In this document: piece by piece, positions 1-16,155 of the stretch
Layout: every line of letters starts with the position of its first letter
Numbering within the stretch: position 1 is the stretch's first letter
Source: a virus
Lineage: Duplodnaviria; Caudoviricetes
Reading direction: 5' to 3' (one strand)
Virus record (IMG/VR): IMGVR_UViG_3300008107_000634
Span: 1,991-65,990 of that record
Length of the DNA: 64,000 nt
Notes under the pieces: model-generated
The model's input: only the letters and a program-made list of their open reading frames with translations
Told to the model about the DNA's origin: nothing
Database searches by the model: none
Position numbers and translations under genes: made by a program

Positions 1-71
1 TTGCGTTGATTTTCAATAGGTTAGCGGCGGGCCGGGGCCGGGTCTAACCTCTTGAAAAAACAAGAAAACCC

Positions 72-536
72 AGGGAAGGTTGCAAGCGTTCCGCCTCCCT
101 CATTCGGAACCATTTTACCTGTCTAGCTCAGGTTAGAGGTGCGTGGTGCTAGTAGTTACTTGCCAAGAACCCAATTTATACGGACTTGAACCGTTTGGCT
201 CACAAGGTTTTCGAGGCCTTGCTTTCACTACATCCACACTTGCAATTTGGTGACGGTTCCGACTGGCTACGGATAACGCATCAAGGCTAATGCCAATCTA
301 GCGTCGCTGTGGATTATTGCTCCATGCCGTCATAAGCTCTATTTATAGCTTTCGACTGAGTGCAGATCTATAGTAGGGTTGCCGCCCTAGTAATTCGCCC
401 TCGGCAAAGGACCGCATTTTCGTGCGTCCACACTCATTCGGAAGCTATAAACTCAATTTCCGGCTTTGTTACACGGACCCCAGAGCAAAAGCCGGAAACT
501 CTTGGGCCGGTGGCGCATAAAGGAGCTGCCTTCCCT
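72..536 (-). ncRNA. Large structured non-coding RNA (~465 nt), unassigned
   Basis: Terminal helix 529-536/72-79 (8 bp). Perfect internal helices 457-467/488-498 and 442-451/342-351, plus 251-256/327-332, 261-267/292-298, several hairpins and a TTCAAGT T-loop arm at 180-194. No credible ORF; own promoter. Confidence 0.75.
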
Positions 537-547
537 ATCGTTTTTAT

Positions 548-576
548 ATTCTATCAAGCCTCTCGCAACTCGTCAA
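548..576 (-). promoter_or_regulatory. sigma70-type promoter TTGACG-17-TAGAAT driving the large ncRNA
   Basis: Near-consensus -35/-10 with 17-bp spacer just upstream of the RNA 5' helix. A second promoter TTGCAG-17-TATAAC lies at 623-651. Confidence 0.75.
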
Positions 577-731
577 CTTCTTTTTTCATCTTGCTGCACC
601 CTCGGTGCCGCTCACAGGTCTAGTTATACCCCTGAACCCTGCTCCCTGCAACAACTATTTTTTGCGTGAGATATCAATGGGTTAGCGGCAGGCCGGGGCC
701 GGGGGCTAACCCCTTGACGGGGTTAGCTTTT

Positions 732-1421
732 TTAGGCCGGAAACAGTTCCCGAGGCACATCTTTAAGCTTGACACGCTCCTGCACCTTTTTCCACGGACG
801 GCTATGGAACTGGCTAGGATGATCCACAATCGGCAGCTTCTTCTTGCGACGAAGAACCTTTTCGAGAATCACCCTTTCGATTTGCGTGTCAGGAAACGCA
901 ATATGTGCTTCCTCGAACGCGGGCTGGCCTGTTTCATAGCGATAAACGCTTTGCGCCGTTGTGCGGACATTACCGGACGGGCTGACTTCTGCCGTGTAAC
1001 GCTTCGGGCAGTTTGTTGCCCACGCATCCCAGATATCGAGCAAATGGACTCGATGGTCGAGGAAACGCTTCTCCAGCATCTTCCAGCTAGTTTCCGCGAG
1101 GACTCGAGTATCGAAGGCAGCATTATAAGCGCAGAGAATAGGCTTGTTGCGTCCATCCAGAATCTCCTTTAGATGTGTGTTGAACCTTTCGCGGATTTCT
1201 GCGAAGGTAAGAGGCATGATCTCCCGGTTATAAGCCATGTCCCAATAACGGGCGACCTTCGACTTGTAAAAGGGATTGTCGAGGGCGAGAACATCCTTAG
1301 CGATGAAGGAGCCCTCCCCATAGACCTTGCCAGCACGATCAAAGCTAGTCCAGCCAAAATCAAAGACTAGACCGTTGCGCTTAGTCGTTTCGCAGTCCAT
1401 GACAACAAACACGGTTTTCAT
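732..1421 (-). CDS. DEDDh (DnaQ-like) 3'-5' exonuclease
   Basis: Motifs DCET, AYNAAFD and H-x4-D (HIAFPD); leaderless promoter TTGACT-16-TAGAGT at 1429-1456. Confidence 0.85.
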   Translation of the reverse strand: MKTVFVVMDCETTKRNGLVFDFGWTSFDRAGKVYGEGSFIAKDVLALDNPFYKSKVARYWDMAYNREIMPLTFAEIRERFNTHLKEILDGRNKPILCAYNAAFDTRVLAETSWKMLEKRFLDHRVHLLDIWDAWATNCPKRYTAEVSPSGNVRTTAQSVYRYETGQPAFEEAHIAFPDTQIERVILEKVLRRKKKLPIVDHPSQFHSRPWKKVQERVKLKDVPRELFPA

Positions 1422-1532
1422 GAGTCACACTCTACCATAACCATCGGCCTAGTCAACTATTTTTTTCTGTGTAGTTTCAAGGGGTTAGTCGCGGGCCCGG
1501 GCTCCGCCCTAAGCCATTGACATGGCTTAGGA

Positions 1533-1952
1533 TTACGTGAGCCGATACTTCTCGCGGAGGTAGGCATAGCACACTTTGAAGATCTTATTGTGCTTGTGGG
1601 TATGCTTCTTCATAACATGATCCACCATCCAATGTGCCAGTTCGTGAAGCAGGAGAACCCGTAGAAGACGATTAGAATCTTTTGAGGTATAGTTACCGAT
1701 TACCGGGCTAGAGCTGAACTTACGGTATTCCTCATACACCGAACCCTCTGGGATAGTTACCAGAATCTCATTAGCCTCGGGATCATAAACCCCAATGCAG
1801 TCCTTATCATCCCCGGGCAGCCTGTTGCCGCTATAGACTAGCACCACCGGAGGATCTAGCTTGTCGGCGTCAAGGACAAAATCTTCGGCAATGCCACAGA
1901 CGACTTCGTCGCTGATACGCTGCATGGTTTTGGTAATATTCTTGAGAAGCAT
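1533..1952 (-). CDS. SprT-like zinc metallopeptidase
   Basis: HELAH (HExxH) followed by H-x-H-N-K-I-F. Confidence 0.65.
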   Translation of the reverse strand: MLLKNITKTMQRISDEVVCGIAEDFVLDADKLDPPVVLVYSGNRLPGDDKDCIGVYDPEANEILVTIPEGSVYEEYRKFSSSPVIGNYTSKDSNRLLRVLLLHELAHWMVDHVMKKHTHKHNKIFKVCYAYLREKYRLT

Positions 1953-2094
1953 TCCTTACCTTATCATATGCTCGGGCCTTTAGCAAGCCGAAAACTTCAT
2001 TAGATATCAATGGGTTAGCGCCGGGCCGGGGCTCCGCGTTAACGTGTTGAAATCCCGCGGTTTTTAGCCGCGGGATTTTCCCTAGGTTGGAAGA

Positions 2095-2409
2095 TCAGCC
2101 GAGCAGACCGATCAGGCGGCCAATGGCCTCCTTGGTGGCACCCTCGAAGCCCTTCGGGTCGAAACCCTTGGACTCCACGGTCAGGAGCAGCTCCTTCTTG
2201 GAAGGCCCCTCCTCCTTAGCCTGCTTGACAGGCTTGTCGGGCGCGATGTAGAGTCCATCGCGAACCAGCTTGGCGCGAACGCTGCGGACGCTCTTATCGA
2301 GAGTCTTGGCGATCTCATCCAGACCGGCGTTGCCCTTCTCGGCATACAGGGAACGAAGCAGGCTGACCTGCTCGTCGGTGTAGTTCACTTTCTTCTGTGC
2401 GTTGCTCAT
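2095..2409 (-). CDS. T5 A2-like helix-turn-helix DNA-binding protein
   Basis: LDEIAKTLDKSVRSVRAKLVRDGLYIAPDKP resembles my recollection of the T5 A2 core (LKEIAK...SVRSKL...Y..SDKP). Followed by the hairpin AATCCCGCGG/CCGCGGGATT at 2051-2078. Confidence 0.6.
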   Translation of the reverse strand: MSNAQKKVNYTDEQVSLLRSLYAEKGNAGLDEIAKTLDKSVRSVRAKLVRDGLYIAPDKPVKQAKEEGPSKKELLLTVESKGFDPKGFEGATKEAIGRLIGLLG

Positions 2410-2514
2410 GTTGTGAATATACCCTCAGCCCGATCCGTTGTCTAGAGAAAAGAAACAGCCAAAATCAATGGGTTAGCCGCGGGCCGGGGCCGGGCCCTAA
2501 GCCCTTGAAAAGGC

Positions 2515-2757
2515 TTAGGTTTTTGCCCCGTAGTATTGAACCAGTCCGGCCCTAGTCCAGTTCCCGGCAATGGTCTTAGACTCGTCGTCAGAATCCAGCG
2601 TGTATTCCTTAACCTTCCAGAAAAGGTTAGGGTTCTGGAAATGCTGCCTTTGGTAGCTCTCCGCCTGCTCTACGCTAGAGAAAAAAAGTCGCTCCGCGTG
2701 GTAAGCAAAATCCCTAACATCCTCGGCGTCGAGAATTAAGAGTTCGTAAATCTTCAT
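2515..2757 (-). CDS. hypothetical protein
   Basis: 80-aa ORF; its stop codon lies in the hairpin arm of the 2465 repeat. Confidence 0.65.
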   Translation of the reverse strand: MKIYELLILDAEDVRDFAYHAERLFFSSVEQAESYQRQHFQNPNLFWKVKEYTLDSDDESKTIAGNWTRAGLVQYYGAKT

Positions 2758-2763
2758 TTTATA

Positions 2764-3234
2764 TTATCCTTTCATGGCAGCAAGCCGCCTGTTATGGTGG
2801 GTGGAATTGATTACGCGAACCCCGAGCGCGCGGATAGCTTCGATTACCGACAGGTTATCGTCGAACATAACGACCGACCGGAACTTGTCGAGCAGCGGCT
2901 TGATAAGCCCCGTTTTAAGCGCAGCGTCGGGCGTGTCAAAGTCACCCTTGATGCGATGAAGCATGATATCGTGATCCAGCCGATGGAACTTGAGATAATG
3001 CAGATCCATATCGTGCATGGTCCGCGAGGTGCAAACCGCGACCGTAGTATCGGGATCGCGATTAGCAAGTCGCATGGTGCGGGCCAAAGGCAGAAGCGTA
3101 TCACGAAACACGGTCTTGCGCGTCTTTAGCGCAAGAAACGCATGGACATCGACGCTACCATCCGGCAGACGAGGCGTCCGATGGTCAGAGTCGATAACGG
3201 TGCCGTCGAGGTCAAAGATGAATAGCTTTTTCAT
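2764..3234 (-). CDS. HAD-family phosphatase (polynucleotide kinase 3'-phosphatase-like)
   Basis: FDLDGT motif I, CTSR motif II, K and FDDN motif IV. Confidence 0.85.
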   Translation of the reverse strand: MKKLFIFDLDGTVIDSDHRTPRLPDGSVDVHAFLALKTRKTVFRDTLLPLARTMRLANRDPDTTVAVCTSRTMHDMDLHYLKFHRLDHDIMLHRIKGDFDTPDAALKTGLIKPLLDKFRSVVMFDDNLSVIEAIRALGVRVINSTHHNRRLAAMKG

Positions 3235-3339
3235 GGGGGGATCATATCACAATGGGCAGAGACTGCAAGCACAAAAAAGATGTTAGATTTCAAGGGGTTA
3301 GCCGCGGGCCGGGGCCGGGCCCTAAGCCATTGAAATGGC

Positions 3340-3519
3340 TTAGGTTTCCTCTGCCTCTTCGTCGCTAATTTCCTCGGCCTCGCTCATTAGCCAACCCTCT
3401 GCTACTCCCATAGCAGCCTCATAGGCCACTTCCTCAGCCTTTTCAAGGCTTTCAACCTCGATTACTTCCTCTGTCATGTCAACATTAAACAAGCCGAACT
3501 TGATCCTAAACTTAGGCAT
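3340..3519 (-). CDS. small acidic protein (59 aa)
   Basis: Manually translated MPKFRIKFG...EEISDEEAEET; ATG overlaps the upstream stop; not in the ORF track. Confidence 0.6.
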   Translation of the reverse strand: MPKFRIKFGLFNVDMTEEVIEVESLEKAEEVAYEAAMGVAEGWLMSEAEEISDEEAEET

Positions 3520-3724
3520 CCTCGTCCTCCTTGCCCCACATCTCCTTCCACTCTTCCTCGGTGACTCCAGTCATAAGGAATTCACGCTGCGCAGCCGTCA
3601 GGTTAGGCATAGCGTTCTGAATCATTGCGCCACGCTGCTGCCACTCATAGAGCTGCTCGTGGGTAACGGGGATGTCGAGAGTCCGGGTGATGCCGGACCA
3701 TTGAGACTGTCGAGTAATAAACAT
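3512..3724 (-). CDS. conserved phage hypothetical protein (MFITRQSQWSG...REFLMTG)
   Basis: AAGGAG RBS just 3' of tRNA-Lys places the start at 3724. Confidence 0.7.
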   Translation of the reverse strand: MFITRQSQWSGITRTLDIPVTHEQLYEWQQRGAMIQNAMPNLTAAQREFLMTGVTEEEWKEMWGKEDEDA

Positions 3725-3743
3725 TTTTTTCTCCTTTAGATTT

Positions 3744-3819
3744 TGGTGGGTGCCGTGGGGCACGATCCCACAACCCTCGATTTAAAAGACCGATGCTCTA
3801 CCAATTGAGCTAGGCACCC
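3744..3819 (-). tRNA. tRNA-Lys(UUU)
   Basis: Cloverleaf: acceptor GGGTGCC/GGCACCC, loop CT-TTT-AA, encoded CCA; atypical T-loop ATCGTGC. Confidence 0.9.
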
Positions 3820-4040
3820 ATGTGTGCGTTGAGGATACCTGCAAGATACATGATACCCGCAACAATTTCAATGAGTAGCAGGGCATTTTCGCGCATCTTT
3901 ATGGCAGCGTAGCCCCACAAGACGCAGCTAGCAAATCCCAGCCACAGGTTCAGAGGGAACCAGACATTGGCGCTAGTCAAACCGATACCGGCGAGAACTA
4001 GCCCTGTCCCTGCCCACTTGATTAGCGCCATCCAATTCAT
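3810..4040 (-). CDS. small membrane protein (about 3 TM helices)
   Basis: Hydrophobic 76-aa ORF; TAG stop lies inside tRNA-Lys. Confidence 0.7.
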   Translation of the reverse strand: MNWMALIKWAGTGLVLAGIGLTSANVWFPLNLWLGFASCVLWGYAAIKMRENALLLIEIVAGIMYLAGILNAHMGA

Positions 4041-4193
4041 GGAAGGATCTTACCATAACGGAGAGTTAGATCAACAAGAAAATTTGCAAGAGATATCAAG
4101 GGGTTAGGGGCGGGCCGGGGCCCAGCCCTAAGTGGTTGAAATTGCTGCCTTCCTAACCCAGCGGGAGAACCTCGGGCAGCGAGGTTTTAGAAT

Positions 4194-4270
4194 TGGTGGG
4201 CCGAGAGGGACTTGAACCCCCGACCAGACCGTTATGAGCGGCCCGCTCTAACCAACTGAGCTATCAGCCC
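4194..4270 (-). tRNA. tRNA with CAU anticodon, most likely Ile2 (lysidine-type)
   Basis: Cloverleaf, loop CT-CAT-AA, C4-G69 and an Ile-type body, encoded CCA. Confidence 0.88.
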
Positions 4271-4460
4271 CCACATCTTCAAGCCACTTCTCGATCCTGA
4301 GAACACCGCCGAAGCAGTCGATAGCCTTGTGGGAGTTCACCCACTCCGCATTCCTGCCCAGCCAGTTTGTGGCAAACGTCTTAGCCTCTTCGAGGCTGTT
4401 GAACTTACCCAGAACGTGCATACCGTCCATGCTCTCCGTCGTGACTTCATACACATACAT
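4248..4460 (-). CDS. hypothetical protein
   Basis: 70 aa with upstream AGGT RBS; stop lies in the D-loop of the CAU tRNA. Confidence 0.6.
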   Translation of the reverse strand: MYVYEVTTESMDGMHVLGKFNSLEEAKTFATNWLGRNAEWVNSHKAIDCFGGVLRIEKWLEDVGADSSVG

Positions 4461-4531
4461 CTACCTTAACTCCTCTTGGGGTTGCAGTTTTATACTGGTG
4501 AATATCATACAGCCTTGCAGCCGTTTTTGCA

Positions 4532-4690
4532 CTAATCAATTTCATACTCCGTAGAGAAATCTTCCTCATATCGACCCGCATAGATAGCCTCGGCTCGAGA
4601 CTCATAGGGGCCAATCAAGTTTCCACTAGGGTCGAACCAATACCACCCATCCGGTCGAAGTATGACATCAGGGTCTAGTGCGTTTCTCAT
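4532..4690 (-). CDS. small hypothetical protein (52 aa)
   Basis: Manual translation MRNALDPDVILRPDGWYWFDPSG..IGPY; promoter-like sequence upstream. Confidence 0.5.
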   Translation of the reverse strand: MRNALDPDVILRPDGWYWFDPSGNLIGPYESRAEAIYAGRYEEDFSTEYEID

Positions 4691-4799
4691 CTTGTAAACA
4701 TATTATCAGGGTCCGAGGCAGATGTCTAGAAGAAAAAAGATGTTAGATGTCAACAGGTTAGCGGCGGGCCGGGGCCGGGCGCTAAGCCCTTGAAAGGAC

Positions 4800-5090
4800 T
4801 TAGCTATTTGCTCGCTCGACAGCCTCACGCGGAGCCCAAGGATATGCTGTCCCTCGGAGGAAGCTCTTGATCCGGCGGCGAGTCCACATCAACTCCTTGG
4901 CGCTCTGACGCAGAGAACGGATAGTAATCTGGGCGAACCTGTCATCCGGGAAACGACGAAGGATAGCCTTGGTCGCTCGGATGCAGTTAGAGACCTCGTT
5001 GTAGTCGTTACGCCACTTGTCACGCTTCCTAATCCATTGGGAGTGGAGGCGACGGGTTTCTGCGGAAGCAATCGGAAAATCATTCATCAT
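4800..5090 (-). CDS. basic hypothetical protein
   Basis: 96 aa; stop lies in the hairpin arm of the 4750 repeat. Confidence 0.65.
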   Translation of the reverse strand: MMNDFPIASAETRRLHSQWIRKRDKWRNDYNEVSNCIRATKAILRRFPDDRFAQITIRSLRQSAKELMWTRRRIKSFLRGTAYPWAPREAVERANS

Positions 5091-5313
5091 GTGTCTACCT
5101 TACAGGTCTAATTGTTACTTGTCAATCACTTTTCTACCCGGTCGTCTAAATACTACCAGAGGTAGGCTTTGACAAGTGGCTGGCCCTATGCCCGCCTAGA
5201 AAGAAGGATACCATAGGTAGGGGTAGGGTCAAGACCAGAAATTGTTGTGTGGTTTCAAAGGGTTAGCGACGGGCCGGGGCCGGGGGCTAACCCCTTGACG
5301 GGGTTAGCTTTTT

Positions 5314-6057
5314 TCACCCATTGGCGAGACCGAGATCCCGCAGTTCCTTCTTGGAAAGTTGCAGCTTGCCGCTCCTGTAGAGGTCACCGATCTTGTCATG
5401 CCACTTGTCGGTGAAGATATCCTGTCGGGAGTAGGGGATGATGATGGTAACGATCTTGTCCCTCTCCATGCGGCGGATCTCCGTTCCGGTGACCTCGCCC
5501 CAAAGCACCTCATACCAGAGTCCGTCAACCTTTCGATATTCCGTTCCATCCTTGGCGACATGGATCTTGCTGGCCTCCTCGGCCGCCTTCTGATCCTTCC
5601 AGACCTTCCTCTCCTGCCGACGGGTCAGCTTCATCTTATTGCGAAGGAGGACGCCGGTAACCGGATGCACATACAGTCCGATGAAGCTGTTCTTCAGCAG
5701 GATGGGGGAGCGATACTTGTGGTAGATGACGACCTCGCCATCGACCATCGAGGTGCGGATCGCAACGAAGTCCTCGACATGATCCCTAACGTGCTGCTGC
5801 ACGGTGTTGTCGGCACGCAGGTTCTCGCAGATCTCGCTGTAAACCTTGTCCCAGAGCCGCCCGACACGACTCTCGATGAACCGGCGCAGCGGCGACAGAT
5901 TCTCGTTCAGCTCCTTGCCGCCCCAGTTACGGACATGGGGCGCGCGCATCCCCTCCTTGCTCGGAAGCAGATCGTGATCGGCCTTCCGACCCTTTCGAGT
6001 GCCGTAACCGCCTCGCCGGGGACGCTCCACCAGAACCTTGTTCATGTCTTTACGCAT
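5314..6057 (-). CDS. conserved hypothetical protein (MRKDMNKVLVERPRRGG...)
   Basis: 247 aa with GGAG RBS; fills the cassette between repeats 5255 and 6135. Confidence 0.75.
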   Translation of the reverse strand: MRKDMNKVLVERPRRGGYGTRKGRKADHDLLPSKEGMRAPHVRNWGGKELNENLSPLRRFIESRVGRLWDKVYSEICENLRADNTVQQHVRDHVEDFVAIRTSMVDGEVVIYHKYRSPILLKNSFIGLYVHPVTGVLLRNKMKLTRRQERKVWKDQKAAEEASKIHVAKDGTEYRKVDGLWYEVLWGEVTGTEIRRMERDKIVTIIIPYSRQDIFTDKWHDKIGDLYRSGKLQLSKKELRDLGLANG

Positions 6058-6341
6058 GGTTGCTCCTTCAAAACTTTATGCTGTGATCATATGCAGGAAC
6101 TAAGGACTTGTCCAGAAAAAATAAACGTGAGATTTCAATAGGTTAGCGACGGGCCGGGGCCGGGGGCTAACCCCTTGACGGGGTTAGCTTTTTTATCGCC
6201 TCCCTCGCATTAGAAGACGATTGTAGTCGCGGGCCGCGCGCTCGAACTCCCGGTCATAATGCGCCTTGCGATCAGGATCGTCCGACTGATTCGCCAGCGC
6301 CTTGTAGTGCTCGGCCACCTTGCGCTTCATTTCCAGTTCGC

Positions 6342-6538
6342 TCACTTTACTGCCCTCCAGAAGGAATTGAGAAACTCACTTGCCCTATCGAACTGCCCGG
6401 ACTCATAAAGGCTCTGCGCCTTATTGAAAACCCCGAACAGGTAGTCGAGACGCGGAGTCTCGAGTAGCGGATCGGCCATGAGATCCAGAAGGTCGTGTGC
6501 CATCTGAAGCTCGTCTCGCAGGGTTTCACGCGTCATAT
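6342..6538 (-). CDS. hypothetical protein (MTRETLRDELQ...)
   Basis: Part of a small operon; GGAG RBS in the preceding gene. Confidence 0.55.
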
Positions 6539-6696
6539 TCCTGCACCTCCTTGATGCTCTCGGCATTGATGTTCCACGCAAACAGGATATCCTGAACGCG
6601 CTCGCAGGCTGCACGGAAATCCTGCGCGAACACCATCTGCTTGTCCGTCGCGAGGGAGACGGGGTCCTTTTCGATCACAAACACAAACCGCTTCAT
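6526..6696 (-). CDS. small hypothetical protein (MKRFVFVIEKD...)
   Basis: GGAG RBS; promoter TTGCAT-16-TAAGAT upstream. Confidence 0.55.
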   Translation of the reverse strand: MKRFVFVIEKDPVSLATDKQMVFAQDFRAACERVQDILFAWNINAESIKEVQEYDA

Positions 6697-6832
6697 TTCG
6701 TTTCTCCGTTGTTGATAGGTGTATCTTACTCTAATCCGCGCACCATGCAAGCATTATTTTTGCGTTGAGTTTCAGAGGGTTAGCGGCGGGCCGGGGCCGG
6801 GGGCTAACCCCTTGACGGGGTTAGCGATTTCG

Positions 6833-7057
6833 CTACATGGCTTGTGGCGTGTTCACCATCGCCCACTCTAGCAACTCGATGCGATTACGCAGCTTCACCT
6901 CCAGCGCTGCGCTCACGCCCAGGAGGCGAGCCTGCTCCTTCACCTCAGCGCGGAGTCGCTTGATCTCCTGCGCCATATTCATCTCCGCTGCGGTGGGGCC
7001 TGCGTTCTCGGAGTCTCGTAGAACATCAACTTGAAATTCCCGGTAGATGTCGCTCAT
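6833..7057 (-). CDS. coiled-coil hypothetical protein (MSDIYREFQ...)
   Basis: GGAGG RBS before the inferred start. Confidence 0.55.
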   Translation of the reverse strand: MSDIYREFQVDVLRDSENAGPTAAEMNMAQEIKRLRAEVKEQARLLGVSAALEVKLRNRIELLEWAMVNTPQAM

Positions 7058-7209
7058 GGCTCGGCCTCCTTCTCCGCAACCTCGAACGCGTGCGAGCAAT
7101 ACTTACCGCAATAATCATCCTCAGACAAGCAAAGGCCTACATAAATCCCCGCAAGGAAAACAAGTACCAATACCCACAATATCGCCAACCCGATTGCAAC
7201 GATCATGGC

Positions 7210-7392
7210 TTAGTTCTCCTCCTCTAGACGCCCGTCGAGGGCAGGCTCGTTTTCCTCCCAGTAGGTAAAGAGGCTATTCATAGCCGCATTGACCTCTGCG
7301 AGCGTCTGGAACGTCACGCCGCGAGGACGATAGCCAAACGTGTCCTTGTAGAAGTCGGAGTATTCTGCCACAGCCTGCTCGAGATCCGTCAT
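7210..7392 (-). CDS. conserved small phage protein (YSDFYKDTFGYRPRG)
   Basis: AAGGAG RBS; promoter TTGACG-16-TAAATT at 7418-7445. Confidence 0.7.
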   Translation of the reverse strand: MTDLEQAVAEYSDFYKDTFGYRPRGVTFQTLAEVNAAMNSLFTYWEENEPALDGRLEEEN

Positions 7393-7994: not shown

Positions 7995-8003
7995 ATAAGT
8001 ATT

Positions 8004-8181: not shown

Positions 8182-8186
8182 GTAGT

Positions 8187-8595: not shown

Positions 8596-8861
8596 CGCGA
8601 CCTCCTTGGTGAGAATGGGAACTTAGCAGAATACGCTAGAGAGTCAACCACTTTTCTACCTAGTCGTCGAATTACTACCAGTCGTTGAATTACTACCGCA
8701 GGTAGCATACCCCTCAACTGACCTCTTCGCCCGCCTCCCAGGAACCAAGGGTATCAGGGATCGCCTAAATGGCAACCTCAGAAATTATCGTGAGATATCA
8801 ATGGGTTAGCCGGGGGCCGGGGCCCTGTGCTAAGCCTTTGAAAAGGCTTAGCTTTTTAGGG

Positions 8862-9062
8862 TCAGTCTGACCAACCCCCGAGGCTATCGCGACCCCCCTC
8901 GTCGCAGTCGGTGAGGTAGGCGTGCAGGTTGTCCCACGCCTCGACCGCTGCCTCCACGTCGGTCAGCTCGGCCATCACCTCGGCGGAGGGAGCCTCGCCG
9001 AAGGCGCGCGTGTGGAACGCGACGAAGCGCGCGACGTGGTATTCAAGATCAAGATCAACCAT
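8862..9062 (-). CDS. small acidic hypothetical protein
   Basis: AGGAG RBS; occupies one cassette. Confidence 0.65.
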   Translation of the reverse strand: MVDLDLEYHVARFVAFHTRAFGEAPSAEVMAELTDVEAAVEAWDNLHAYLTDCDEGGRDSLGGWSD

Positions 9063-9258
9063 CAGTCATCTCCTATGTGGGTATTCAAAACTAGCAGAGC
9101 CAACACGCAAGTCAACCTTTATTTTTGCGTGCGATATCAACGGGTTAGCCGGGGGCCGGGGCCCGCCGCCAAGTGCTTGATATCTAACGATAATTTTTTC
9201 TCTTGCAAAGTCTAGGAAGGCAGTCTAGTCTAGCGATAGTCAATCAAGGGAGTCCTCC

Positions 9259-9456
9259 ATGAACCTCGAAGCCCACAACCTCACCCTCAACCCCGTCCCC
9301 GTCCACTCCGCGCGCGGGTGCTGGTCGTGGCACTTCACCTGCGGCAGCCGTCTAGCCTTCGTCCTCGACGTCCCCGCCCGCACCATGGAGCAGAGTCGGA
9401 GGGTGGCCATCCTCCGTGCCATCAGCATTGCGGAGGACGAGAACCTACGCAACTAA
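9259..9456 (+). CDS. hypothetical protein (plus-strand cassette)
   Basis: GGGAG RBS; promoter TTGCAA-17-TAGTCT at about 9204-9232. Confidence 0.55.
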   Translation: MNLEAHNLTLNPVPVHSARGCWSWHFTCGSRLAFVLDVPARTMEQSRRVAILRAISIAEDENLRN

Positions 9457-9534
9457 ATTTGCGTGCGATATCAATAGGTTAGCCGGGGGCCGGGGCCCGG
9501 TGCTAAGCCTTTGAAAAGGCTTAGCTTTTTAGGG

Positions 9535-9753
9535 TCAGCGGAGGAATTTTGTGACCGGGTGCGACTTGTTCTCCCCCGTGTTCGCGTTCAGGACAACCTG
9601 TCGCGTGCGAACCCACTCCAGCTCGCTCGCGTATTTTCCGTAGATCGGGTGCGTGAAAACCTTCTCGAGCACCTTCTCGACAGGCTCCGGAGTCAGCGAC
9701 GTATAGATCATCCCGCGACCCAGATTGACTTCGTGAAGATTCGCAACAACCAT
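9535..9753 (-). CDS. hypothetical protein
   Basis: 72 aa, GGGAG RBS, one cassette. Confidence 0.6.
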   Translation of the reverse strand: MVVANLHEVNLGRGMIYTSLTPEPVEKVLEKVFTHPIYGKYASELEWVRTRQVVLNANTGENKSHPVTKFLR

Positions 9754-9896
9754 TTTTCGTCTCCCTTGTTGATGGCGGCACTATATAGAAACTTGCGATC
9801 CCTGCAAGCATTATTTTTTGTGTGCGATATCAAAGGGTTAGCCGGGGGCCGGGGCCCGCCCCTAACCCTTTGAAAGGGCTAGGGATTTTGTGGGCC

Positions 9897-10140
9897 TTAC
9901 TTCCCGAAGTGCTCGACCAAGCGCTGCAGCAGATCCGAGGACTCCCAGTCCGAAGGGCCGTTGGCCATCGGGCCGGGATTGAAGGGCGACGTGCTGAGCA
10001 CGCTGTACAGGTTGGAACGCTGCCCCGAGTGGTATTCGCTCGCAAACCAATAGATGGTTTCCTCACGAGTCCACTGGTCGACGTCGGGGACCATTTCGTC
10101 GATGACGTTGTCGAGAGTTTCGCGATTCGGATCTTGCATG
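9897..10140 (-). CDS. hypothetical protein (MQDPNRETLD...)
   Basis: GGGAG RBS before the inferred start; one cassette. Confidence 0.55.
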
Positions 10141-10304
10141 GGTATCTCCCTGTTGATGGACTCACTATACAGCAGTTTCGCGTTAGCGCAAGCATTATTT
10201 TTTGCGTTGAGTTTCAAGGGGTTAGCCGGGGGCCGGGGCCCGCCCCTAACCCTTTGAATTGTCTCGGTTTTTTCGGCGGTAGAGCTTCTTCATTTTGGAC
10301 CCTT

Positions 10305-10514
10305 TCACGCTGGGAGGAGGCCATAGGCGCGAGCGGCATAGGCAGCGACCCAACGCTCACGCTCGGAGAGGTCACGGAACCTGCGAGGACCGAAAGGCTG
10401 CCCCACTTCGAGGAGACGCTCGCCCACGCGCGAGAGTTCATTGGCCCACGCAAGGTCTTCGCAGTTTTGCTCTGCATCATTGAGCATCAGGCGGGCGAGG
10501 TGCTTGAGGTCCAT
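10305..10514 (-). CDS. hypothetical protein (MDLKHLARLML...)
   Basis: GAGGAG RBS; promoter shared with the 12.5-13.5 kb cassettes. Confidence 0.6.
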   Translation of the reverse strand: MDLKHLARLMLNDAEQNCEDLAWANELSRVGERLLEVGQPFGPRRFRDLSERERWVAAYAARAYGLLPA

Positions 10515-10714
10515 GTCTGTTCTCCTCAGTTGATACATATAATATAGGGCATCGCACCCCAGTGGTCAACAGGATTCTTTCGTCTAGATGCAAAAAAGAT
10601 GTGTTTAAGATCAATGGGTTAGCCGCGGGCCGGGGCTCCGCCCTAACCTATTGAATTAGCACTGATTTTCTACCTCATAGAATTACTACCACAGGTAGTA
10701 GTTTTACTACCACC

Positions 10715-10867
10715 TCACCTATCATAGGCGCGATCGAGTCGATCTTCCTCGAGCCGGTTGGCAGCGCGCCAGCCCCGCTGCCAGCTAGCAGCGTCCTCTT
10801 CCGTCATGTTCTCGGGGCGAAGCTTGCCGCTATAGTAGGCTTCATATCCGGCATTGTAGTAGTCCAT
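10715..10867 (-). CDS. Rmf/CrpP-like small protein (50 aa)
   Basis: Manual translation MDYYNAGYEAYYSG...AASWQRGWRAA; pattern Y-x-x-G-Y-x-A...W-x-x-G-W. Confidence 0.5.
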   Translation of the reverse strand: MDYYNAGYEAYYSGKLRPENMTEEDAASWQRGWRAANRLEEDRLDRAYDR

Positions 10868-11238
10868 GCGTCGACTCCTGTTTTGAACGTCCCCTTATAT
10901 AGGGCCGAGTCTCGTTTTATGCAAGATCTTTCTTATGCAAGAAGCGCATGGCCCTATGCATCCTAGCTCTCAAAAAAAGCGTTATAGATCAATGGGTTAG
11001 CCGCGGGCCGGGGCCCGTCGCTAAGTAGTTGATTCTAAACGATAATTTTCGCGTCTCGCGCCCGATCCGCTTGCAAGAACCGTGCCAAGTCGCGACTCGG
11101 CCGAATCGGCGGGGCTAGACCCTAGCATGACCGCCGACTCTGCAGAAAAAAACGCATCGCGCGAAAATAATTCCGTTGTATCTTTAGAGGCGACGCCCTA
11201 TATATCTCCCATCGCAACGGACAACAACGGAGTCTCCC

Positions 11239-11490
11239 ATGTCCTTCGACCCCGCCGCCACCCTCGCCATCCTCGCCGCCGGTCCCGCGCTCGTGACGTT
11301 CACGAAGAAGGACGGCACGGACCGGACGATGCGCTGCACGCGCTCGCCGGACCTGCTCCCGCCCGGCGCGGGCAAGGGGACGGACACGCGGAAGGATCAG
11401 GGCAACCTGATCGCCGTCTTCGACCTCGACGCTCAGGCGTGGAAGGGTTTCTTCTTCGACAGGATGGTGGCGATCCAGCCGATCGCCTAA
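11239..11490 (+). CDS. WYL_2-like (Sm-like beta-barrel) phage protein, copy 1
   Basis: VTFTKKDGTDRTMRCT...VFDLDAQAWKGF pattern. Confidence 0.7.
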   Translation: MSFDPAATLAILAAGPALVTFTKKDGTDRTMRCTRSPDLLPPGAGKGTDTRKDQGNLIAVFDLDAQAWKGFFFDRMVAIQPIA

Positions 11491-11818
11491 CCTGTCAAGG
11501 GAAAAATGCGCCACTATGGCGCATTTTTTTTGTCTAAAGCGTTGGCACAGTTCTTGCAAGGCCGGCTGTGGTTAGGGGCAGAAAAAAGCCAACGATATCA
11601 ATGGGTTAGCCACGGGCCCGGCCCCGCCGCTAAGTATTTGATTCTAAACGATAATTTTCGCGTCTCGCGCCCGATCCGCTTGCAAGAACCGTGCCAAGTC
11701 GCGACTCGGCCGAATCGGCGGGGCTAGACCCTAGCATGACCGCCGACTCTGATTTTTGTTGAACGGAATCGGGCGCATCCCTATCTTATGCATAGTCAAC
11801 AACGCAACGGAGTCGAAC

Positions 11819-12004
11819 ATGGATAGCCTGAACCTCATTTCTCAGATCACCTACGACGAGATCAGGAACGATCCCGCGCTCTGCGGTCGAGTCATGGCCT
11901 ATCTGTCCATAGCGGTGCATGGACTCCCGGAGGATGGATTCACGCACAAGTGGCTCGCAGCCGAGTTTGCAAAGGAAGTCGCGAAGATCAAGGAGTCGCG
12001 CTGA
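11819..12004 (+). CDS. small helical hypothetical protein (paralogue family with 16463 and 16688)
   Basis: CAACGGAGTCGAAC-ATG leader; promoter TTGAAC-17-TATCTT at 11759-11787. Confidence 0.65.
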   Translation: MDSLNLISQITYDEIRNDPALCGRVMAYLSIAVHGLPEDGFTHKWLAAEFAKEVAKIKESR

Positions 12005-12090
12005 TGGATTATCTTATTCTCGGCCTCTTCGCGATCATCGGGCCTTATCTGGCCGTCTGGCTTTCGGTCTGGCTAGGCCCACGCGACTAG
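12004..12090 (+). CDS. 28-aa hydrophobic peptide
   Basis: TGATG coupling; MDYLILGLFAIIGPYLAVWLSVWLGPRD. Confidence 0.4.
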   Translation: MDYLILGLFAIIGPYLAVWLSVWLGPRD

Positions 12091-12265
12091 CCGATTCGCA
12101 AAGGCGAGGCAAGAAAAAAATCTTCGTGCCATGCGATTTTTTTCTTGCCTCTAGCAGGCGACTCGCTTAGTCTGCTAGTGTGGGAATCCGACCTAACGTG
12201 TCCAGCGGGTTGGCACGATTCTTGCAAGCCACGCAGGCCCTAGACGGATAAAAAAGCCAACGATA
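12088..12265 (+). repeat. ~180-bp non-coding block duplicated at about 15686-15865 (hairpin, sigma70 promoter, sigma54 box)
   Basis: Near-identical sequence in both places. Confidence 0.85.
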
Positions 12266-12326
12266 TCAATGGGTTAGCCCCGGGCCGGGGCCCCGCCCTA
12301 AGCCCTTGAAAAGGCTTAGGAAATTG

Positions 12327-12527
12327 TCAAGGGTCTATTTTGCCAAAATCCTTCACCCGAACCACAAGAGTGGAAGCAGCTATCATAAAACCCTCCTTGA
12401 AATGAGCGAACACGCTTCCATCTGGGTGACCAGACAGTATCACCCCCTGCTTGTCGCACATATCGCGCAGCTTCTCAACGAAGTCGCGACGGGACTTGGG
12501 GGTAGACTTCTTAGTGGTCTTGGCCAT
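12327..12527 (-). CDS. hypothetical protein (KKSTPKSR family), paralogue of 13307
   Basis: Shared N-terminus TKKSTPKSR..FV.KLR..C.K. Confidence 0.7.
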   Translation of the reverse strand: MAKTTKKSTPKSRRDFVEKLRDMCDKQGVILSGHPDGSVFAHFKEGFMIAASTLVVRVKDFGKIDP

Positions 12528-12675
12528 CTCTGTCTCCTCGGTTGATATCTACACCATAGGGCATCGCCTCCCAGAGGTCAACCTAATTCTTTATGTTTAA
12601 AATCAATGGGTTAGCCACGGGCCGGGGCCCAGCCCTAAGCCCTTGAAAAGGCTTAGGATTTTCTGGGGGCCTAGT

Positions 12676-12855
12676 TCAGTCCTTCAGGATGTCCTGAAGA
12701 ATCCACAGGTCCGACCGGACGTCGGACATGCTGGTGTAGTGGTCCTGGACACCATTAAGCATCGCGTCGGCGAGGTTGCGCGCCTGCGCCAGCTTGTCGC
12801 GAAGGCTGGCGATCTCCGCAATGAGGTCGGCGGTCTGGGTGGTGGCGTCGGTCAT
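12676..12855 (-). CDS. small coiled-coil protein (59 aa, MTDATTQTADL...)
   Basis: Manual translation; GGGAG RBS; not in the ORF track. Confidence 0.55.
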   Translation of the reverse strand: MTDATTQTADLIAEIASLRDKLAQARNLADAMLNGVQDHYTSMSDVRSDLWILQDILKD

Positions 12856-13017
12856 CTAGAACTCCCTTGTTAATGTTTACAATATAGGGTATCGCACCCT
12901 AGCGGTCAACCTAATTCTTTAGCCCGGTGCAAAAAAGATGTGTTTAAAATCAATGGGTTAGCCACGGGCCGGGGCCCAGCCCTAAGCCCTTGAAAAGGCT
13001 TAGGGTTTTCTGGGGGC

Positions 13018-13275
13018 CTACATTCCAGTAGCGTCGGAGAACCATTTCCAGTCCTTTTCCGACTTCTGCTCCAGACGCTCGACCTCGCGTTCCAGCATCT
13101 GGACGCGGGCGCGAAGGCGGTTGATTTCGGCCACCAGAGGGCTCACATCCTCGACCTTTACATAATCGCCCTCTTCGAGCGGCACCAAATAATCATCATA
13201 ATCTCCGGCGAAATCCCACCGCTGGGGCATCTGGACGGTGGTGGCTTCGGTCATCGCTGTCTCCTTGGTGATCAT
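13018..13275 (-). CDS. hypothetical protein with C-terminal coiled coil
   Basis: 85 aa; a later start at MTEATT with AAGGAG RBS is possible. Confidence 0.6.
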   Translation of the reverse strand: MITKETAMTEATTVQMPQRWDFAGDYDDYLVPLEEGDYVKVEDVSPLVAEINRLRARVQMLEREVERLEQKSEKDWKWFSDATGM

Positions 13276-13306
13276 GGGGTCAGTATAGGCGGCTTCCGGG
13301 ACAAAG

Positions 13307-13495
13307 TCAAGTGCCTATCTCAGGCCACAAGCGGACAAACTGTACCGCGTCCTCCCCTCCATCCAGGAAATGGGCAATCGCGTTCCCATCCTGGTCGCCA
13401 AACAGGAGCACGTTATGCTTGGCGCACAGGGCGCGAAGCTTGGCGACGAAGGCCGCGCGGGACTTGGGGGTCGATTTCTTGGTGGCGTCGGTCAT
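13307..13495 (-). CDS. hypothetical protein (KKSTPKSR family)
   Basis: GAGGAG RBS before MTDATKK. Confidence 0.65.
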   Translation of the reverse strand: MTDATKKSTPKSRAAFVAKLRALCAKHNVLLFGDQDGNAIAHFLDGGEDAVQFVRLWPEIGT

Positions 13496-13644
13496 CGCTG
13501 TCTCCTCTGTTGATGTCTGCACCATAGGGTATCGCGCCCTAGCGGTCAACCTAATTTTTTGGCCCTACGCAAAAAAGATGCGTTTAAAATCAATGGGTTA
13601 GCCACGGGCCGGGGCCGGGCTCTAACCTATTGAATTAGCACTAA

Positions 13645-13730
13645 TTTTCTACCAGTCATCATATTACTACCATTCGTTGAATTACTACCACTGGTAGTAG
13701 TTTTACTACCAGTCGTTGAATTACTACCAT
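13645..13730. repeat. TTACTACC(AGTCGTTGAA) repeat cluster; related clusters at 5130-5166, 8652-8706, 10666-10712
   Basis: Direct repeats with an ~18-bp unit plus a CTACC-N3-GGTAG palindrome. Confidence 0.75.
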
Positions 13731-13854
13731 TTAGCCTAATTTAGGCCTAAAAACACCCCCGTAAGTGCTTGATTCTAAAGGCTTTTTTTGGCCTTCCGAT
13801 ACCGATTCTGCCCCTTTTGCTGGTCGTTTCGCCCAGCCGGGCGTTGCCCGGAAG

Positions 13855-13995
13855 CCACACCTGTGGCAAAAGAGCAACTGTGGCAAATTTGCCACACCGT
13901 GATTTTCATGCAACTGTGGCTGGTTTGTCACGCTGTGGCCTTTCTGCAACTGTGGCCAAGATGTCACAGCGTGGCCGCCTTGCCACGCTGTGACA
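13855..13995. repeat. cluster of TGTGGC/GCCACA/GTCAC(A/G) direct and inverted repeats
   Basis: About ten occurrences in 140 bp of non-coding DNA. Confidence 0.7.
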
Positions 13996-14003
13996 TTTTT
14001 GCA

Positions 14004-14378
14004 TCACCCCTCGAGTCTGGCAAGTTGCCATTGCATTGCGGCAATCTTGCGGCGCACCGAGTCGGCATCGCCCGACTCGCCGATCGCCGTGTTACATTCA
14101 AAGCAAAGCACCGCAAGGTTTCCCGTCACATACCCTAGCTCAGGGCGAATCTTGTGGAGGCTAGGCGAAAGGGTATGCGACTCCTTGTCGCCAAAGGCGA
14201 GGAAGCGGTCGCAATGCTCGCAAACCATGGACCGGCCCTTGCGGCGCAGGACGGAGTCAATGGCGTGCGCTAGCGACTCCGAGTCCAGACAAGGAATCGC
14301 CTTGCCCTTGTCGCGCGCGACTCGCACGCGCGACAGGGTATTGTTTCGGATATTGCGAGCATCGCGGGAGGCTTTCAT
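14004..14378 (-). CDS. HNH-like endonuclease
   Basis: CEHC...PSLHKI...GYVTGNLAVLCFECN; TAATG coupling to the upstream ORF gives the start at 14378. Confidence 0.6.
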   Translation of the reverse strand: MKASRDARNIRNNTLSRVRVARDKGKAIPCLDSESLAHAIDSVLRRKGRSMVCEHCDRFLAFGDKESHTLSPSLHKIRPELGYVTGNLAVLCFECNTAIGESGDADSVRRKIAAMQWQLARLEG

Positions 14379-14572
14379 TAGCGGGACTCCGTGGCGAGGG
14401 TAAGGGCGCGGCGAGCGGCCGCATCGCGGCTCTTCCGCATAGTGCGCTCCGCGACGTCGATATCGCAGAACCATGCACCGTTGCGCATGAAACGCCATGT
14501 CCAAGAGCCGCGCGCGACGTAGACGGGCGACTCCTGCATGGTGATTCCGAGGCTGGCGAGGGTAGACGACAT
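14378..14572 (-). CDS. hypothetical protein (MSSTLASLG...)
   Basis: CAACGGAG leader; promoter TTGATT-17-TATCTT. Confidence 0.55.
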   Translation of the reverse strand: MSSTLASLGITMQESPVYVARGSWTWRFMRNGAWFCDIDVAERTMRKSRDAAARRALTLATESR

Positions 14573-15082
14573 GAGCGACTCCGTTGCGTTGTGGACTATG
14601 CATAAGATAGGGAGTCGCCATCCTAGAATCAACGGACTCGAGCTATCTATTTTTGCATGGCTGCCATGCGTATTTTGCAATGGACTCTTGCGGGCCTATC
14701 AGGCAATGTGCTAGTGTGGAGATCCGACTCGGCGCGTCCGGCGGGTTGGCACGATTCTTGCAAGGCTGCGGGGTTGGCACGATTCTTGCAAGCCGCGCAG
14801 GCCATAGATGGATAAATTGTCGTTTAGAATCAATGGGTTAGACGTGGGGCCGGCCCCGCCGCTAAGTATTTGATTCTAAACGATAATTTCCGCATTTCGC
14901 GCCAGAATCGCTTGCAAGAACCGTGCCAAGTCGCGACTCGGCCGAATCGGTGGGGCGCTACCCTAGCATGGCCGCCGACTTTGCGTCAACAGAAAAAAAC
15001 GCATCGCGCGAAAATTTTTTCGTTGAACGGAATCGGGCGCATCCCTATCTTATGCATAGTCCACAACGCAACGGAGTCGACC

Positions 15083-15307
15083 ATGAAATACATCGCCGAG
15101 TGCCGCTTCCCCGCCCACCCGAATTCCAGTCTCGCGCGTGACGGTTTCACGTCGTGGGGCGAGCGGTGGACGATCACCGCCGACTCCGTCGAGTCGGCTC
15201 GCGCCAAGGTTCTCGCGCGCTTCGCGGATCCGATGCGTCCTTCCTATCGCGAAGGCTGGGTCGAGTCGCTGGAAACCTCCGAATCGTGGGACGCCCGTCG
15301 CCGCTGA
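15083..15307 (+). CDS. hypothetical protein (MKYIAECRF...)
   Basis: CAACGGAG leader; same promoter as 11819. Confidence 0.6.
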   Translation: MKYIAECRFPAHPNSSLARDGFTSWGERWTITADSVESARAKVLARFADPMRPSYREGWVESLETSESWDARRR

Positions 15308-15357
15308 CGGGCTGGCGCGAATCGCCTAGCATCACAACGCAAACAACGGAGTCGCCC

Positions 15358-15468
15358 ATGCTTCCCATCTTCAATATCTCGACTCGCCGCGTCGGCGGTA
15401 TCCGCTTCCTGAAAATCGGGCGCTTCACGTTTTCGTTTTGCGTCGCGCGTTCCTATCGCCCTCTGTAA
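15358..15468 (+). CDS. 36-aa basic peptide (GGIRFLKIGRFTFSFCV)
   Basis: CAACGCAAACAACGGAG leader. Confidence 0.5.
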   Translation: MLPIFNISTRRVGGIRFLKIGRFTFSFCVARSYRPL

Positions 15469-15479
15469 GGAGTCCCGCA

Positions 15480-15689
15480 ATGAATCATCCCATCTTGGAT
15501 GCCGTCTATCTGACTCGCCGCTTCGCCGAGTCCTTCAATAACGGCCAGCCTTTCCCGCAAGCCGCCGCTATCGGCGCGCTGCGTGCGCTTGTGGAAAGCC
15601 TGATCCTAGAGGTTGACTCGGAGACTCGCGAGGCTGTCATGGCAAGCATGAATCGTGAAATCGAGCGCAACCAGAATCGGCGCGCCTAG
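15480..15689 (+). CDS. hypothetical protein (MNHPILDAV...)
   Basis: AAGGAG RBS. Confidence 0.55.
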   Translation: MNHPILDAVYLTRRFAESFNNGQPFPQAAAIGALRALVESLILEVDSETREAVMASMNREIERNQNRRA

Positions 15690-16155
15690 CCGATTCGCAA
15701 AGGCGAGACAAGAAAAAAAATCTTCGTGCCATGCGATTTTTTTCTTGCCCCTAGCAGGCGACTCGCTTAGTCTGCTAGTGTGGGAATCCGACCTAACGTG
15801 TCCGGCGAGTTGGCACAGTTCTTGCAAGCCACGCAGGCCTTAGATGGATAAAAAGGCCAACAATATCAATAACTTAGGCGTGGGGCCGGCCCCGCCGCTA
15901 AGTAGTTGATTCTAAAAGCTTTTTTTCGCGTTTCGCGCCCGATCCGCTTGCAAGAACCGTGCCAAGTCTCGACTCGTCCGAATCGGCGGGGCGCTACCCT
16001 AGCACGCGAGCCTGCCGCGCGTCAAGCGCCTATCTAGCCCAGTCTGGTGTAATTAGTCGCACCGGGCTGGACTATTTAGGCGACGAGCCCCCTTGCAACG
16101 AATCGGGCGCGCGCTTATCTTCCATCTATCGCAACGGACAACAACGGAGTCTCCC

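Follow-up and report, generated by a model that had tools for sequence, protein, structure and literature searches.

What are the repeated elements that divide the left-arm genes of an uncultured T5-like phage, and what reads them? The DNA analyzed here, called the window throughout, is a stretch of 64,000 nucleotides from the IMG/VR virus record IMGVR_UViG_3300008107_000634 (positions 1,991–65,990 of the record), and all coordinates are those of the window. In its first 16 kb, the cassettes are bounded by copies of a 44-bp dyad, in which TCAA-N4-TTAG and its inverted counterpart CTAA-N4-TTGA flank a 20-bp G/C spacer. Judged from the sequence, the elements would be architectural promoter and boundary sites of the type bound by integration host factor (IHF), a reading to which we give roughly an even chance.

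A search of the window for TCAA-N4-TTAG-N20-CTAA-N4-TTGA with at most two mismatches yields 28 matches, where 100 shuffles predict 0.08. One match, at 6068–6111, is spurious, and a 43-bp copy at 13–55 restores the true total to 28, of which 27 are exactly 44 bp long, as counted in the initial annotation made from this DNA. The copies are confined to 13–15909, and none is found in 17–64 kb. When the spacer was left free between 8 and 36 bp, with at most one mismatch per arm, it measured 20 bp in 28 of 29 window copies and 19 bp in the other. The same scan gave 20 bp in 168 of 180 copies from viral relatives and in 444 of 458 from metagenome loci, so that 93–97% of copies in the three sets have this spacer; these and all later counts of metagenome loci, elements, and half-sites refer to those among the matches listed. 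The spacer length, on which the initial annotation had staked its IHF proposal, is conserved.

The 44-mer forms the core of a larger symmetric module, about 76 bp in length. Read inward from either end, the module has an A-tract, 8 bp, WATCAA-N4-TTAG, and then the 20-bp G/C spacer, which the two mirror-image halves share and whose centre is palindromic. The centre reads GGCGCC in relatives and CGGGCC-GG-GGCCCG in the window. A T5-type nick site was considered for the GCGC of this centre, and the T5 source consulted gives no nick consensus. IHF recognizes four elements: WATCAA, a TTR four bp further on, two AA/TT steps nine bp apart, and an A-tract of 4–6 bp in the site's 5′ half (PMC1874591). 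All four are present at the correct offsets on both flanks, in the window and in about 530 further unique elements of related contigs. The TTR ends of the two half-sites face each other, and the site centres, located just outside WATCAA, are about 51 bp apart, roughly five helical turns.

Three sets of half-sites were scored, from the window (n = 56), viral relatives (n = 260), and the listed metagenome matches (n = 806). The window contains 29 exact copies of WATCAANNNNTTR, where 4.0 would be expected, and 23 of them fall in elements, with 16 in promoter-proximal half-sites, 6 in distal half-sites, and 1 at a site not counted as a half-site. TCAA is invariant, and exact WATCAA is found in 39%, 60%, and 45% of the window, relative, and metagenome half-sites, respectively. 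The two bases preceding TCAA were not imposed by the search; in relatives, the second base before it is A or T in about 95% of half-sites and the adjoining base is A in about 70%. TTA is present in 56 of 56 window half-sites; in relatives it is imposed by the search pattern. An A/T run ending 6–14 bp (mode 10) ahead of TCAA accompanies 39 of 54 window half-sites (72%) versus 9 of 125 control TCAA sites (7%), and 208 of 293 half-sites of relatives (71%) versus 656 of 4260 controls (15%). The A run lies on the WATCAA strand by 31:8 in the window and 172:36 in relatives, as in the lambda H′ site. AA/TT steps peak at offset −7, nine bp before the AA of TCAA, with frequencies of 0.46 in the window, 0.63 in relatives, and 0.55 in the listed metagenome set; at offsets −9, −8, and −5 they reach at most 0.10 in the latter two. 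At least three of the four IHF elements are found in 31 of 56 window half-sites, 178 of 260 from relatives, and 479 of 806 from the listed metagenome matches.

The earlier claim of about 56 IHF sites is therefore overstated, as 22 of the 56 half-sites carry exact WATCAANNNNTTR (16 proximal and 6 distal) and 31 have three or more of the elements. The likeness to IHF sites nevertheless stands when half-sites are scored against controls, and its geometry is kept in hundreds of related elements. The A-tract noted about 8 bp upstream of the IHF-type core lies there, on the correct strand, in 72% of half-sites, and the example given, AAAAAA...TATCAA-TGGG-TTA at 11583–11608, is correct. The initial annotation also stated that only protein-contact bases are fixed. 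The fixed bases are indeed those of the IHF consensus, but the G after TTA is invariant as well and lies outside it.

Within the 44-mer, self-complementarity is limited to two tetramer pairs and the central G/C palindrome. The N4 positions pair in 22–78% of window copies, no more than column composition predicts. In viral relatives (116 unique elements), pairing at the variable symmetric positions matches the prediction from composition (z −1.8 to +0.9), and 403 further metagenome elements among the matches listed give no positive pairing signal, with one small exception. One-sided departures at the fixed tetramers are never compensated in the partner, and no alternative pair types occur at positions 1–4 and 9–12. 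The lack of both covariation and compensation is the signature of a protein site, and the 44-mer is best described, from its sequence, as a two-fold symmetric protein site and not a stem. The same view had been taken from the window copies, whose N4 arms were rightly seen to be often unpaired, and the relatives uphold it. A hairpin or cruciform of the 44-mer is ruled out by the covariation tests on the three data sets.

A separate, outer hairpin is formed by the distal half-site and an arm outside the 44-mer. It is present in 15 of 28 window copies, with a 10-bp stem, and the initial annotation overlooked that the distal half-site doubles as its 3′ arm. Outer stems measure 7–10 bp, compared with mostly 2–4 bp in controls. 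In an example at 2496–2519, an A/T run lies outside the outer arm; in another, the distal half of the element at 674–717 pairs with 718–727. The outer hairpin is found in about 28 of 133 relatives' elements (absent from about 80%), always on one side only. Its T-run sits on the strand antisense to the genes, so that in gene orientation an A-run precedes the hairpin and the G/C spacer follows it, and it scores as a terminator on the plus strand only. An intrinsic terminator of the cassette mRNAs is ruled out because the T-run is antisense to the genes. The outer hairpin may stabilize 3′ ends.

The elements hold a fixed position relative to the promoters. In the direction of the genes, a unit boundary is sequentially composed of a stop codon followed by an A-run, an arm that can pair with the first half-site (in 15 of the 28), the 44-mer, 8–10 bp, an A/T tract, a sigma70-type promoter, and a start. 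The start either follows a Shine-Dalgarno leader or is an ATG merely 5–10 nt past the −10 hexamer. In 16 of 22 sigma70-type cassettes, the −35 hexamer begins 20–22 nt off the element edge, with the A/T tract in between. In three other cassettes it begins 40–41 nt off the edge, two helical turns further away. A consensus scan made independently gives 21 promoter-like sites where 8.9 would be expected, and most of them lie beside elements on the minus strand. One example is TAGACA-17-TATATT at 2416–2444 on the minus strand, whose −35 hexamer begins 20 nt off the element edge and whose ATG lies 6 nt past the −10 hexamer. Among the roles suggested in the initial annotation, help to the adjacent promoter fits this fixed register best. 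T5 relies on the host sigma70 RNA polymerase for all gene classes (PMC7472727). No gene for a phage RNA polymerase, a sigma factor, or IHF/HU was found in the window or in five partial relatives; in the latter, whose contigs are only 27–65% complete, neither IHF/HU (PF00216) nor a sigma54 activator (PF00158) was found.

Several minus-strand starts (1421, 1952, 2409, 3234, and 4040) look leaderless, with the ATG 5–10 nt past the −10 hexamer and no Shine-Dalgarno sequence. They include all three conserved pre-early genes, which encode a 229-aa protein, an A2-like protein, and a HAD phosphatase. Other cassettes carry a CAACAAGGAGA-type leader.

The units between elements span 334–1240 bp. The statement that one element stands at every cassette boundary is nearly right, except that some units hold two or three open reading frames (ORFs) or a tRNA and that a few promoters lack an element. 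The copies, which as dyads have no strand, run from 13–55 onward. That first copy, with a 19-bp spacer, also emerges from the free-spacer scan. It is followed by copies at 674–717, 1477–1520, 2007–2050 (one mismatch, with a separate terminator-like hairpin at 2051–2078), 2465–2508 (upstream of the leaderless A2-like gene), 3290–3333, 4096–4139, 4750–4793, and 5255–5298. The copy at 6135–6178 is one at which contigs from RNA libraries diverge (6162/6193). Further copies lie at 6772–6815 (one mismatch), 7467–7510, 7861–7904 (directly downstream of tRNA-Glu), 8408–8451, and 8798–8841. The copy at 9137–9180 has one mismatch, and the consensus scan finds the IHF consensus exact in both of its halves. 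The array continues with 9471–9514, 9830–9873, 10214–10257, 10611–10654, 10989–11032, 11598–11641, 12266–12309, 12603–12646, 12950–12993, 13590–13633, 14830–14873, and 15866–15909. The −35 hexamer begins 41 nt off the edge at 10611–10654, and 40 nt off the edge at both 12950–12993 and 13590–13633.

Five of the 28 elements are also in register with sigma54-type boxes. Nine perfect TGGCAC-N5-TTGC (−24/−12) boxes are present, all in 11.0–16.0 kb (11073–15964), and each lies exactly 55 bp off an element edge and points toward the element. Three elements lie between convergent boxes: 11598–11641, with boxes at 11543–11557 (+) and 11682–11696 (−); 14830–14873, with boxes at 14747–14761 (+), 14775–14789 (+), and 14914–14928 (−); and 15866–15909, with boxes at 15811–15825 (+) and 15950–15964 (−). 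The elements at 10989–11032 and 12266–12309 each have one inward box, at 11073–11087 (−) and 12211–12225 (+), respectively. The flanks of these modules prolong the dyad (cgtttagaa / ttctaaacg), as at 14830–14873. The genes beside the boxes also have their own promoters of the TTGAAC-N17-TATCTT type. The boxes recur only in a close relative, L094, and no Sigma54_activat gene was found in the five partial relatives or among the window ORFs. IHF is the classical co-factor of sigma54 promoters, and the fixed register of the boxes with IHF-like sites would be compatible with a bending protein. In Caulobacter, sigma54 units with IHF and downstream enhancers are the subject of works cited in PMC3096577, and a phage-like cluster has IHF-dependent sigma70 promoters (PMC11150451).

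The same architecture recurs in about 45 IMG/VR contigs whose spacer sequences and cargo are unrelated. Contigs with a TerL 63–64% identical to that of the window contain 14–20 copies of the element, and a reversed-pattern control gives none. The chance-proof form of the pattern occurs in at least 115 metagenome stretches, including contigs of 165–171 kb. Neither T5 nor the Vibrio T5-like phage JSF10 contains a copy, even at two mismatches. A collection of genomes from 185,579 species yields one match, and the element is therefore a feature of a phage lineage and not a host repetitive extragenic palindrome (REP). The sole match, L096 (RFQY01000469.1), is a 1-kb contig of a Rhodobacteraceae metagenome-assembled genome and is 84% identical over 74 bp to 6119–6192; it is probably a phage fragment binned with that genome.

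Related arrays are mosaic. Within the window, modules are duplicated, with 10988–12300 resembling 14830–16875 at 69–97% identity. L094 contains the same duplicated modules in a different arrangement, rearranged at a module. The arrays of four relatives (G002, G003, G004, and G005) are collinear yet mosaic, and when G002 is compared with G004, an element edge is no more than 25 bp away from 9 of the 26 ends of homology blocks, where about 13% would be expected by chance on our own estimate. The comparison of cassettes among relatives suggested in the initial annotation thus places breakpoints at elements. No integrase or recombinase family was found among 50 left-arm ORFs and 35 other ORFs, and the mosaicism fits homologous exchange at conserved linkers, as proposed for the promoter-stem-loop cassettes (PeSLs) of T4-type phages (PMC2839356).

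Contigs of four metatranscriptome runs span most cassettes and break at repeats; DNA carry-over is possible, and uncovered bins are uninformative. Some of these contigs leave the window sequence exactly at element edges, at 735, 2464, 6162/6193, and 9889. One joins 738 to 6162 and omits the 5.4 kb between two near-identical elements. The divergence reflects either strain-level cassette replacement or an assembly path through repeats.

The window contains a siphovirus gene set of TerS, TerL, portal, prohead protease, capsid, major tail protein, and a tape measure protein of 1662 aa. TerL is about 41% identical to its counterparts in T5-group phages (Demerecviridae, about 110 kb), and the window derives from an uncultured freshwater T5-like siphovirus. 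There is no closer named phage: when 50,697 phage records were searched by megablast and tblastn, neither the left arm, nor the 1103-aa tail protein, nor the A2-like protein had a match. The nearest related record found, G001 (40 kb), lacks the array. The window phage is common in lake and river metagenomes from many studies.

The left arm contains three tRNA genes and about 40 small genes, which lie mainly on the minus strand. Three of its proteins, and no more, have counterparts in related contigs. These are the 229-aa protein (732–1421, minus strand; phrog_20187), which by eye looks like a DEDD-type exonuclease; the HAD/PNKP-type phosphatase (2764–3234, minus strand), which is T5 dmp-like by position and fold class; and a 104-aa helix-turn-helix (HTH) protein of the Pfam family Phage_T5_A2 (2095–2409, minus strand). 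Consistent conservation in the terminal repeats of T5-like phages is limited to dmp, A1, A2, and one other ORF (bioRxiv 10.1101/866236). The array is therefore best read as a T5-type pre-early, or first-step-transfer, region with A2-like and dmp-like genes.

The G+C content of the element stretch (13–15909) is 50–58%, and that of the virion genes after it is 27–49%. Within this one phage, 50–58% across the pre-early arm (1–17000) compares with 27–41% across most virion and auxiliary genes (28000–64000). Auxiliary genes of the pelagic-phage type lie amid the virion genes (29411–33985, and 17–64 kb generally) and encode PhoH, a TctA transporter subunit, two 2OG-Fe(II) oxygenases, and an NlpC/P60 domain. 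Short direct repeats are clustered at 13640–13720, 13850–14000, and 17000–17180, with TACTACCA-like, CTGTGGC, and CGTGCAAAC-like sequences. The clusters occupy ORF-poor DNA at the inner end of the array and just ahead of terS, and may correspond to the repeat regions and the injection-stop signal of T5, or may form an origin.

The CcrM-type methylation motif GANTC occurs 84 times against 24 expected in 10.6–17.2 kb. Elsewhere it occurs 41 times against 41 expected (1–10.6 kb) and 86 times against 160 in the late genes, a depletion of about two-fold. Many copies lie within a conserved leader, AACGGAGTCG, ahead of start codons. The pattern hints at methylation-linked regulation and an alphaproteobacterial host. 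Alphaproteobacteria possess IHF (PMC11150451).

The A2-family gene is conserved in most element-bearing contigs and is present in one to three copies per array, with one copy in the 17-kb arm of the window. Relatives L021, L044, L089, L090, L100, and L035 contain two or three diverged paralogues, each in its own cassette. The putative recognition segment of the protein, KSVRSVRSKLVREGVY, is nearly invariant. Its model predicts a three-helix HTH N-domain with a pLDDT of 82. The best structural match of this domain is the GcrA DNA-binding domain (Z 6.8, 33–36% identity), and the Z score is tied with those of generic Myb and homeodomain folds. Searches against solved structures gave nothing at E ≤ 0.33 by sequence and nothing at E ≤ 0.001 with Foldseek. 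The label of GcrA homolog was dropped on account of the tied scores and was not used for host inference. The family name of PF26822 comes from a protein atlas, and no paper on PF26822 was found.

Each module separates the 3′ end of a small pre-early cassette from the promoter at which host RNA polymerase would start the next one, which puts the promoter-proximal half-site at about −55 and the A-tract of that half in the −40s. If the modules are IHF-type sites, the newly injected pre-early DNA would be bound there by host IHF or by another protein of its family, most strongly at the proximal half. The bound protein would fold the upstream DNA back on RNA polymerase and so set the architecture at every cassette promoter. 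The distal half, often merged with an mRNA 3′ hairpin, would mark the end of the preceding unit, and the conserved stretch of about 80–100 bp would provide a homology patch for gain, loss, and swapping of cassettes. A much wider proposal, which we regard as speculative and rather improbable, is that a large and hitherto undescribed group of aquatic T5-like and larger phages builds its pre-early DNA as a chain of autonomous promoter–gene units, split by phased pairs of U-turn sites for host IHF on the two sides of a stiff G/C linker. The linear DNA, which enters free of torsional constraint, would be folded by IHF into a regular nucleoprotein array. This array would make the promoters fire, insulate the units, and, with at least 50 strong sites per genome, sequester host IHF, and the modules would be the exchange points of a phage-wide cassette pool.

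Several observations weigh against IHF as the reader of the elements. Exact WATCAA is present in only 39% of window half-sites, and the distal half mostly reads TTTCAA. IHF recognition does not explain why the G that follows TTA is invariant, why the centre is palindromic, or why the 20-bp G/C spacer is rigid; a further protein may therefore act at the centre, or a protein other than IHF may read the entire dyad. A site centred near −55 overlaps the zone of the RNA polymerase alpha subunit and UP element, which is not a well-documented position for activation by IHF. A few promoters of the array stand without an element. The element also lies downstream of both sigma54 promoters, not between enhancer and promoter as in the textbook arrangement. 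In addition, the presence of IHF in the host is something we infer, and a phage-encoded candidate reader accompanies the element: the A2-family HTH protein is encoded, at about 55% identity, by 37 of 45 viral loci and, among the metagenome matches listed, by 22 of the 26 loci that measure at least 5 kb.

That protein, as a dimer or higher oligomer, is the best candidate for a phage-encoded DNA-binding protein with the dyad as its operator. The likeness to IHF sites would then be partial or coincidental, and the protein would switch the pre-early promoters off or on, or act in a T5-type second-step DNA transfer. We consider this possible but unlikely. It would account for an A2-like HTH among only three shared left-arm proteins, for a recognition segment as nearly invariant as the DNA tetramers, and for the conserved centre and rigid spacer; membership in Phage_T5_A2 and the modelled N-domain, with its best match to a GcrA DNA-binding domain, point the same way. 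However, co-occurrence is expected anyway because gene and element both lie in the pre-early region, and T5 and JSF10, which belong to the group that defines the A2 family, lack the element. A Myb/GcrA-like domain reads about 6 bp as a monomer, whereas the four-part IHF match spans about 34 bp per half, and an unrelated operator is unlikely to imitate all four IHF elements with their offsets correct.

A reader may also be unnecessary if the element acts mainly at the level of RNA or transcription, as a PeSL-like terminator or 3′-stabilizer with a promoter, and owes its uniformity to recombination or gene conversion. Every element can indeed fold in gene orientation, by the outer hairpin in 15 of 28 and otherwise by the 44-mer on itself (−20 to −37 kcal/mol), elements do lie at 3′ ends of genes, modules are duplicated and relatives' arrays mosaic with block ends near element edges, and PeSLs are a documented precedent (PMC2839356). 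Yet more than 500 elements, including the listed metagenome ones, show no covariation or compensatory change, the outer hairpin is missing from about 80% of relatives' elements and carries its T-run antisense to the genes, and gene conversion cannot account for the same 16 bases and 20-bp spacing across contigs with unrelated spacers and cargo. This explanation is therefore very unlikely in our view. Site-specific recombination sites, integron attC-like or intasome-like and used by a dedicated recombinase, deserve almost no credence. The cassette-like layout, the imperfect dyad at cassette boundaries, the varying cassette content with breakpoints at elements, and the RNA-library contigs that diverge there all recall such sites, and the initial annotation had offered this role. 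But no recombinase is found among the 85 ORFs, the G002 and G004 arrays are collinear, as ordinary homologous exchange predicts, and the length is rigid without covariation, whereas attC varies in length and relies on a folded strand. The 20-bp G/C spacer is also far longer than the crossover regions of tyrosine and serine recombinases. Integron attC itself was dropped for want of an integrase, a variable length, and a folded-strand signal.

If IHF or another architectural protein docks at every boundary, the array would represent a general and previously unnoticed rule by which abundant phages of fresh and marine waters lay out their early regions. The module would be a standard protein-folded connector that carries promoter context, isolates units, and permits cassette swaps, and it would extend the PeSL idea from T4-like to T5-like phages through a distinct and more rigid element. 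The element is a sequence tag for pre-early regions in metagenomes and for their ORFan cargo, which is likely to be a pool of genes for host takeover and anti-defence. Another use could be as a natural collection of insulated promoter cassettes.

A literature search found no paper describing the element, and several known systems resemble it in part. The nearest, as the initial annotation aptly proposed, are the PeSLs of T4-type phages (PMC2839356, PMC4122927), which are repeated intergenic motifs of about 100 bp in a hyperplastic, ORFan-rich early region. They likewise combine a strong sigma70-type promoter and its A/T-rich upstream tract with a G/C-rich element, bound self-expressing cassettes, and coincide with points of indel or replacement between relatives. 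However, the PeSL stem-loop occupies variable positions in the promoter and forms no rigid dyad, whereas here a fixed 44-bp dyad lies upstream of the promoter, its G/C part has no conserved pairing, and the phage is a T5-like siphovirus and not a T4-like myovirus. The canonical IHF site of lambda attP H′ (PMC1874591) shares WATCAA, TTR, the AA/TT step, and the A-tract at matching offsets. The putative sites described here differ in forming inverted pairs at a fixed 20-bp G/C spacing, in their 28 repeats, and in the invariant G after TTA and the palindromic centre.

The RIP/RIB (BIME-1) elements of E. coli consist of an IHF site flanked by two inverted REP palindromes. They too are dispersed extragenic repeats that place G/C-rich palindromic DNA and IHF sites at the 3′ ends of transcription units, but in the phage-borne element two IHF-like sites flank one G/C core and there are no REP-type stems. 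IHF-assisted sigma54 promoters, such as Caulobacter flaN/flbG with downstream ftr enhancers (works cited in PMC3096577), also place perfect −24/−12 boxes in register with IHF-like sites between divergent genes. Unlike those, the boxes here face inward with the IHF-like pair downstream of both, no enhancer or activator gene was identified, and 5 of 28 elements are involved. The T5 left terminal repeat and injection-stop signal (bioRxiv 10.1101/866236) similarly contain conserved non-coding repeats in a pre-early region beside dmp, A1, and A2. Those repeats form clustered untranslated blocks with paired DnaA boxes and no dyad at each gene boundary, and T5 lacks the element. In kind, the element is related to PeSL cassettes and IHF-assisted promoters; in form, it is distinct, rigid, and widespread.

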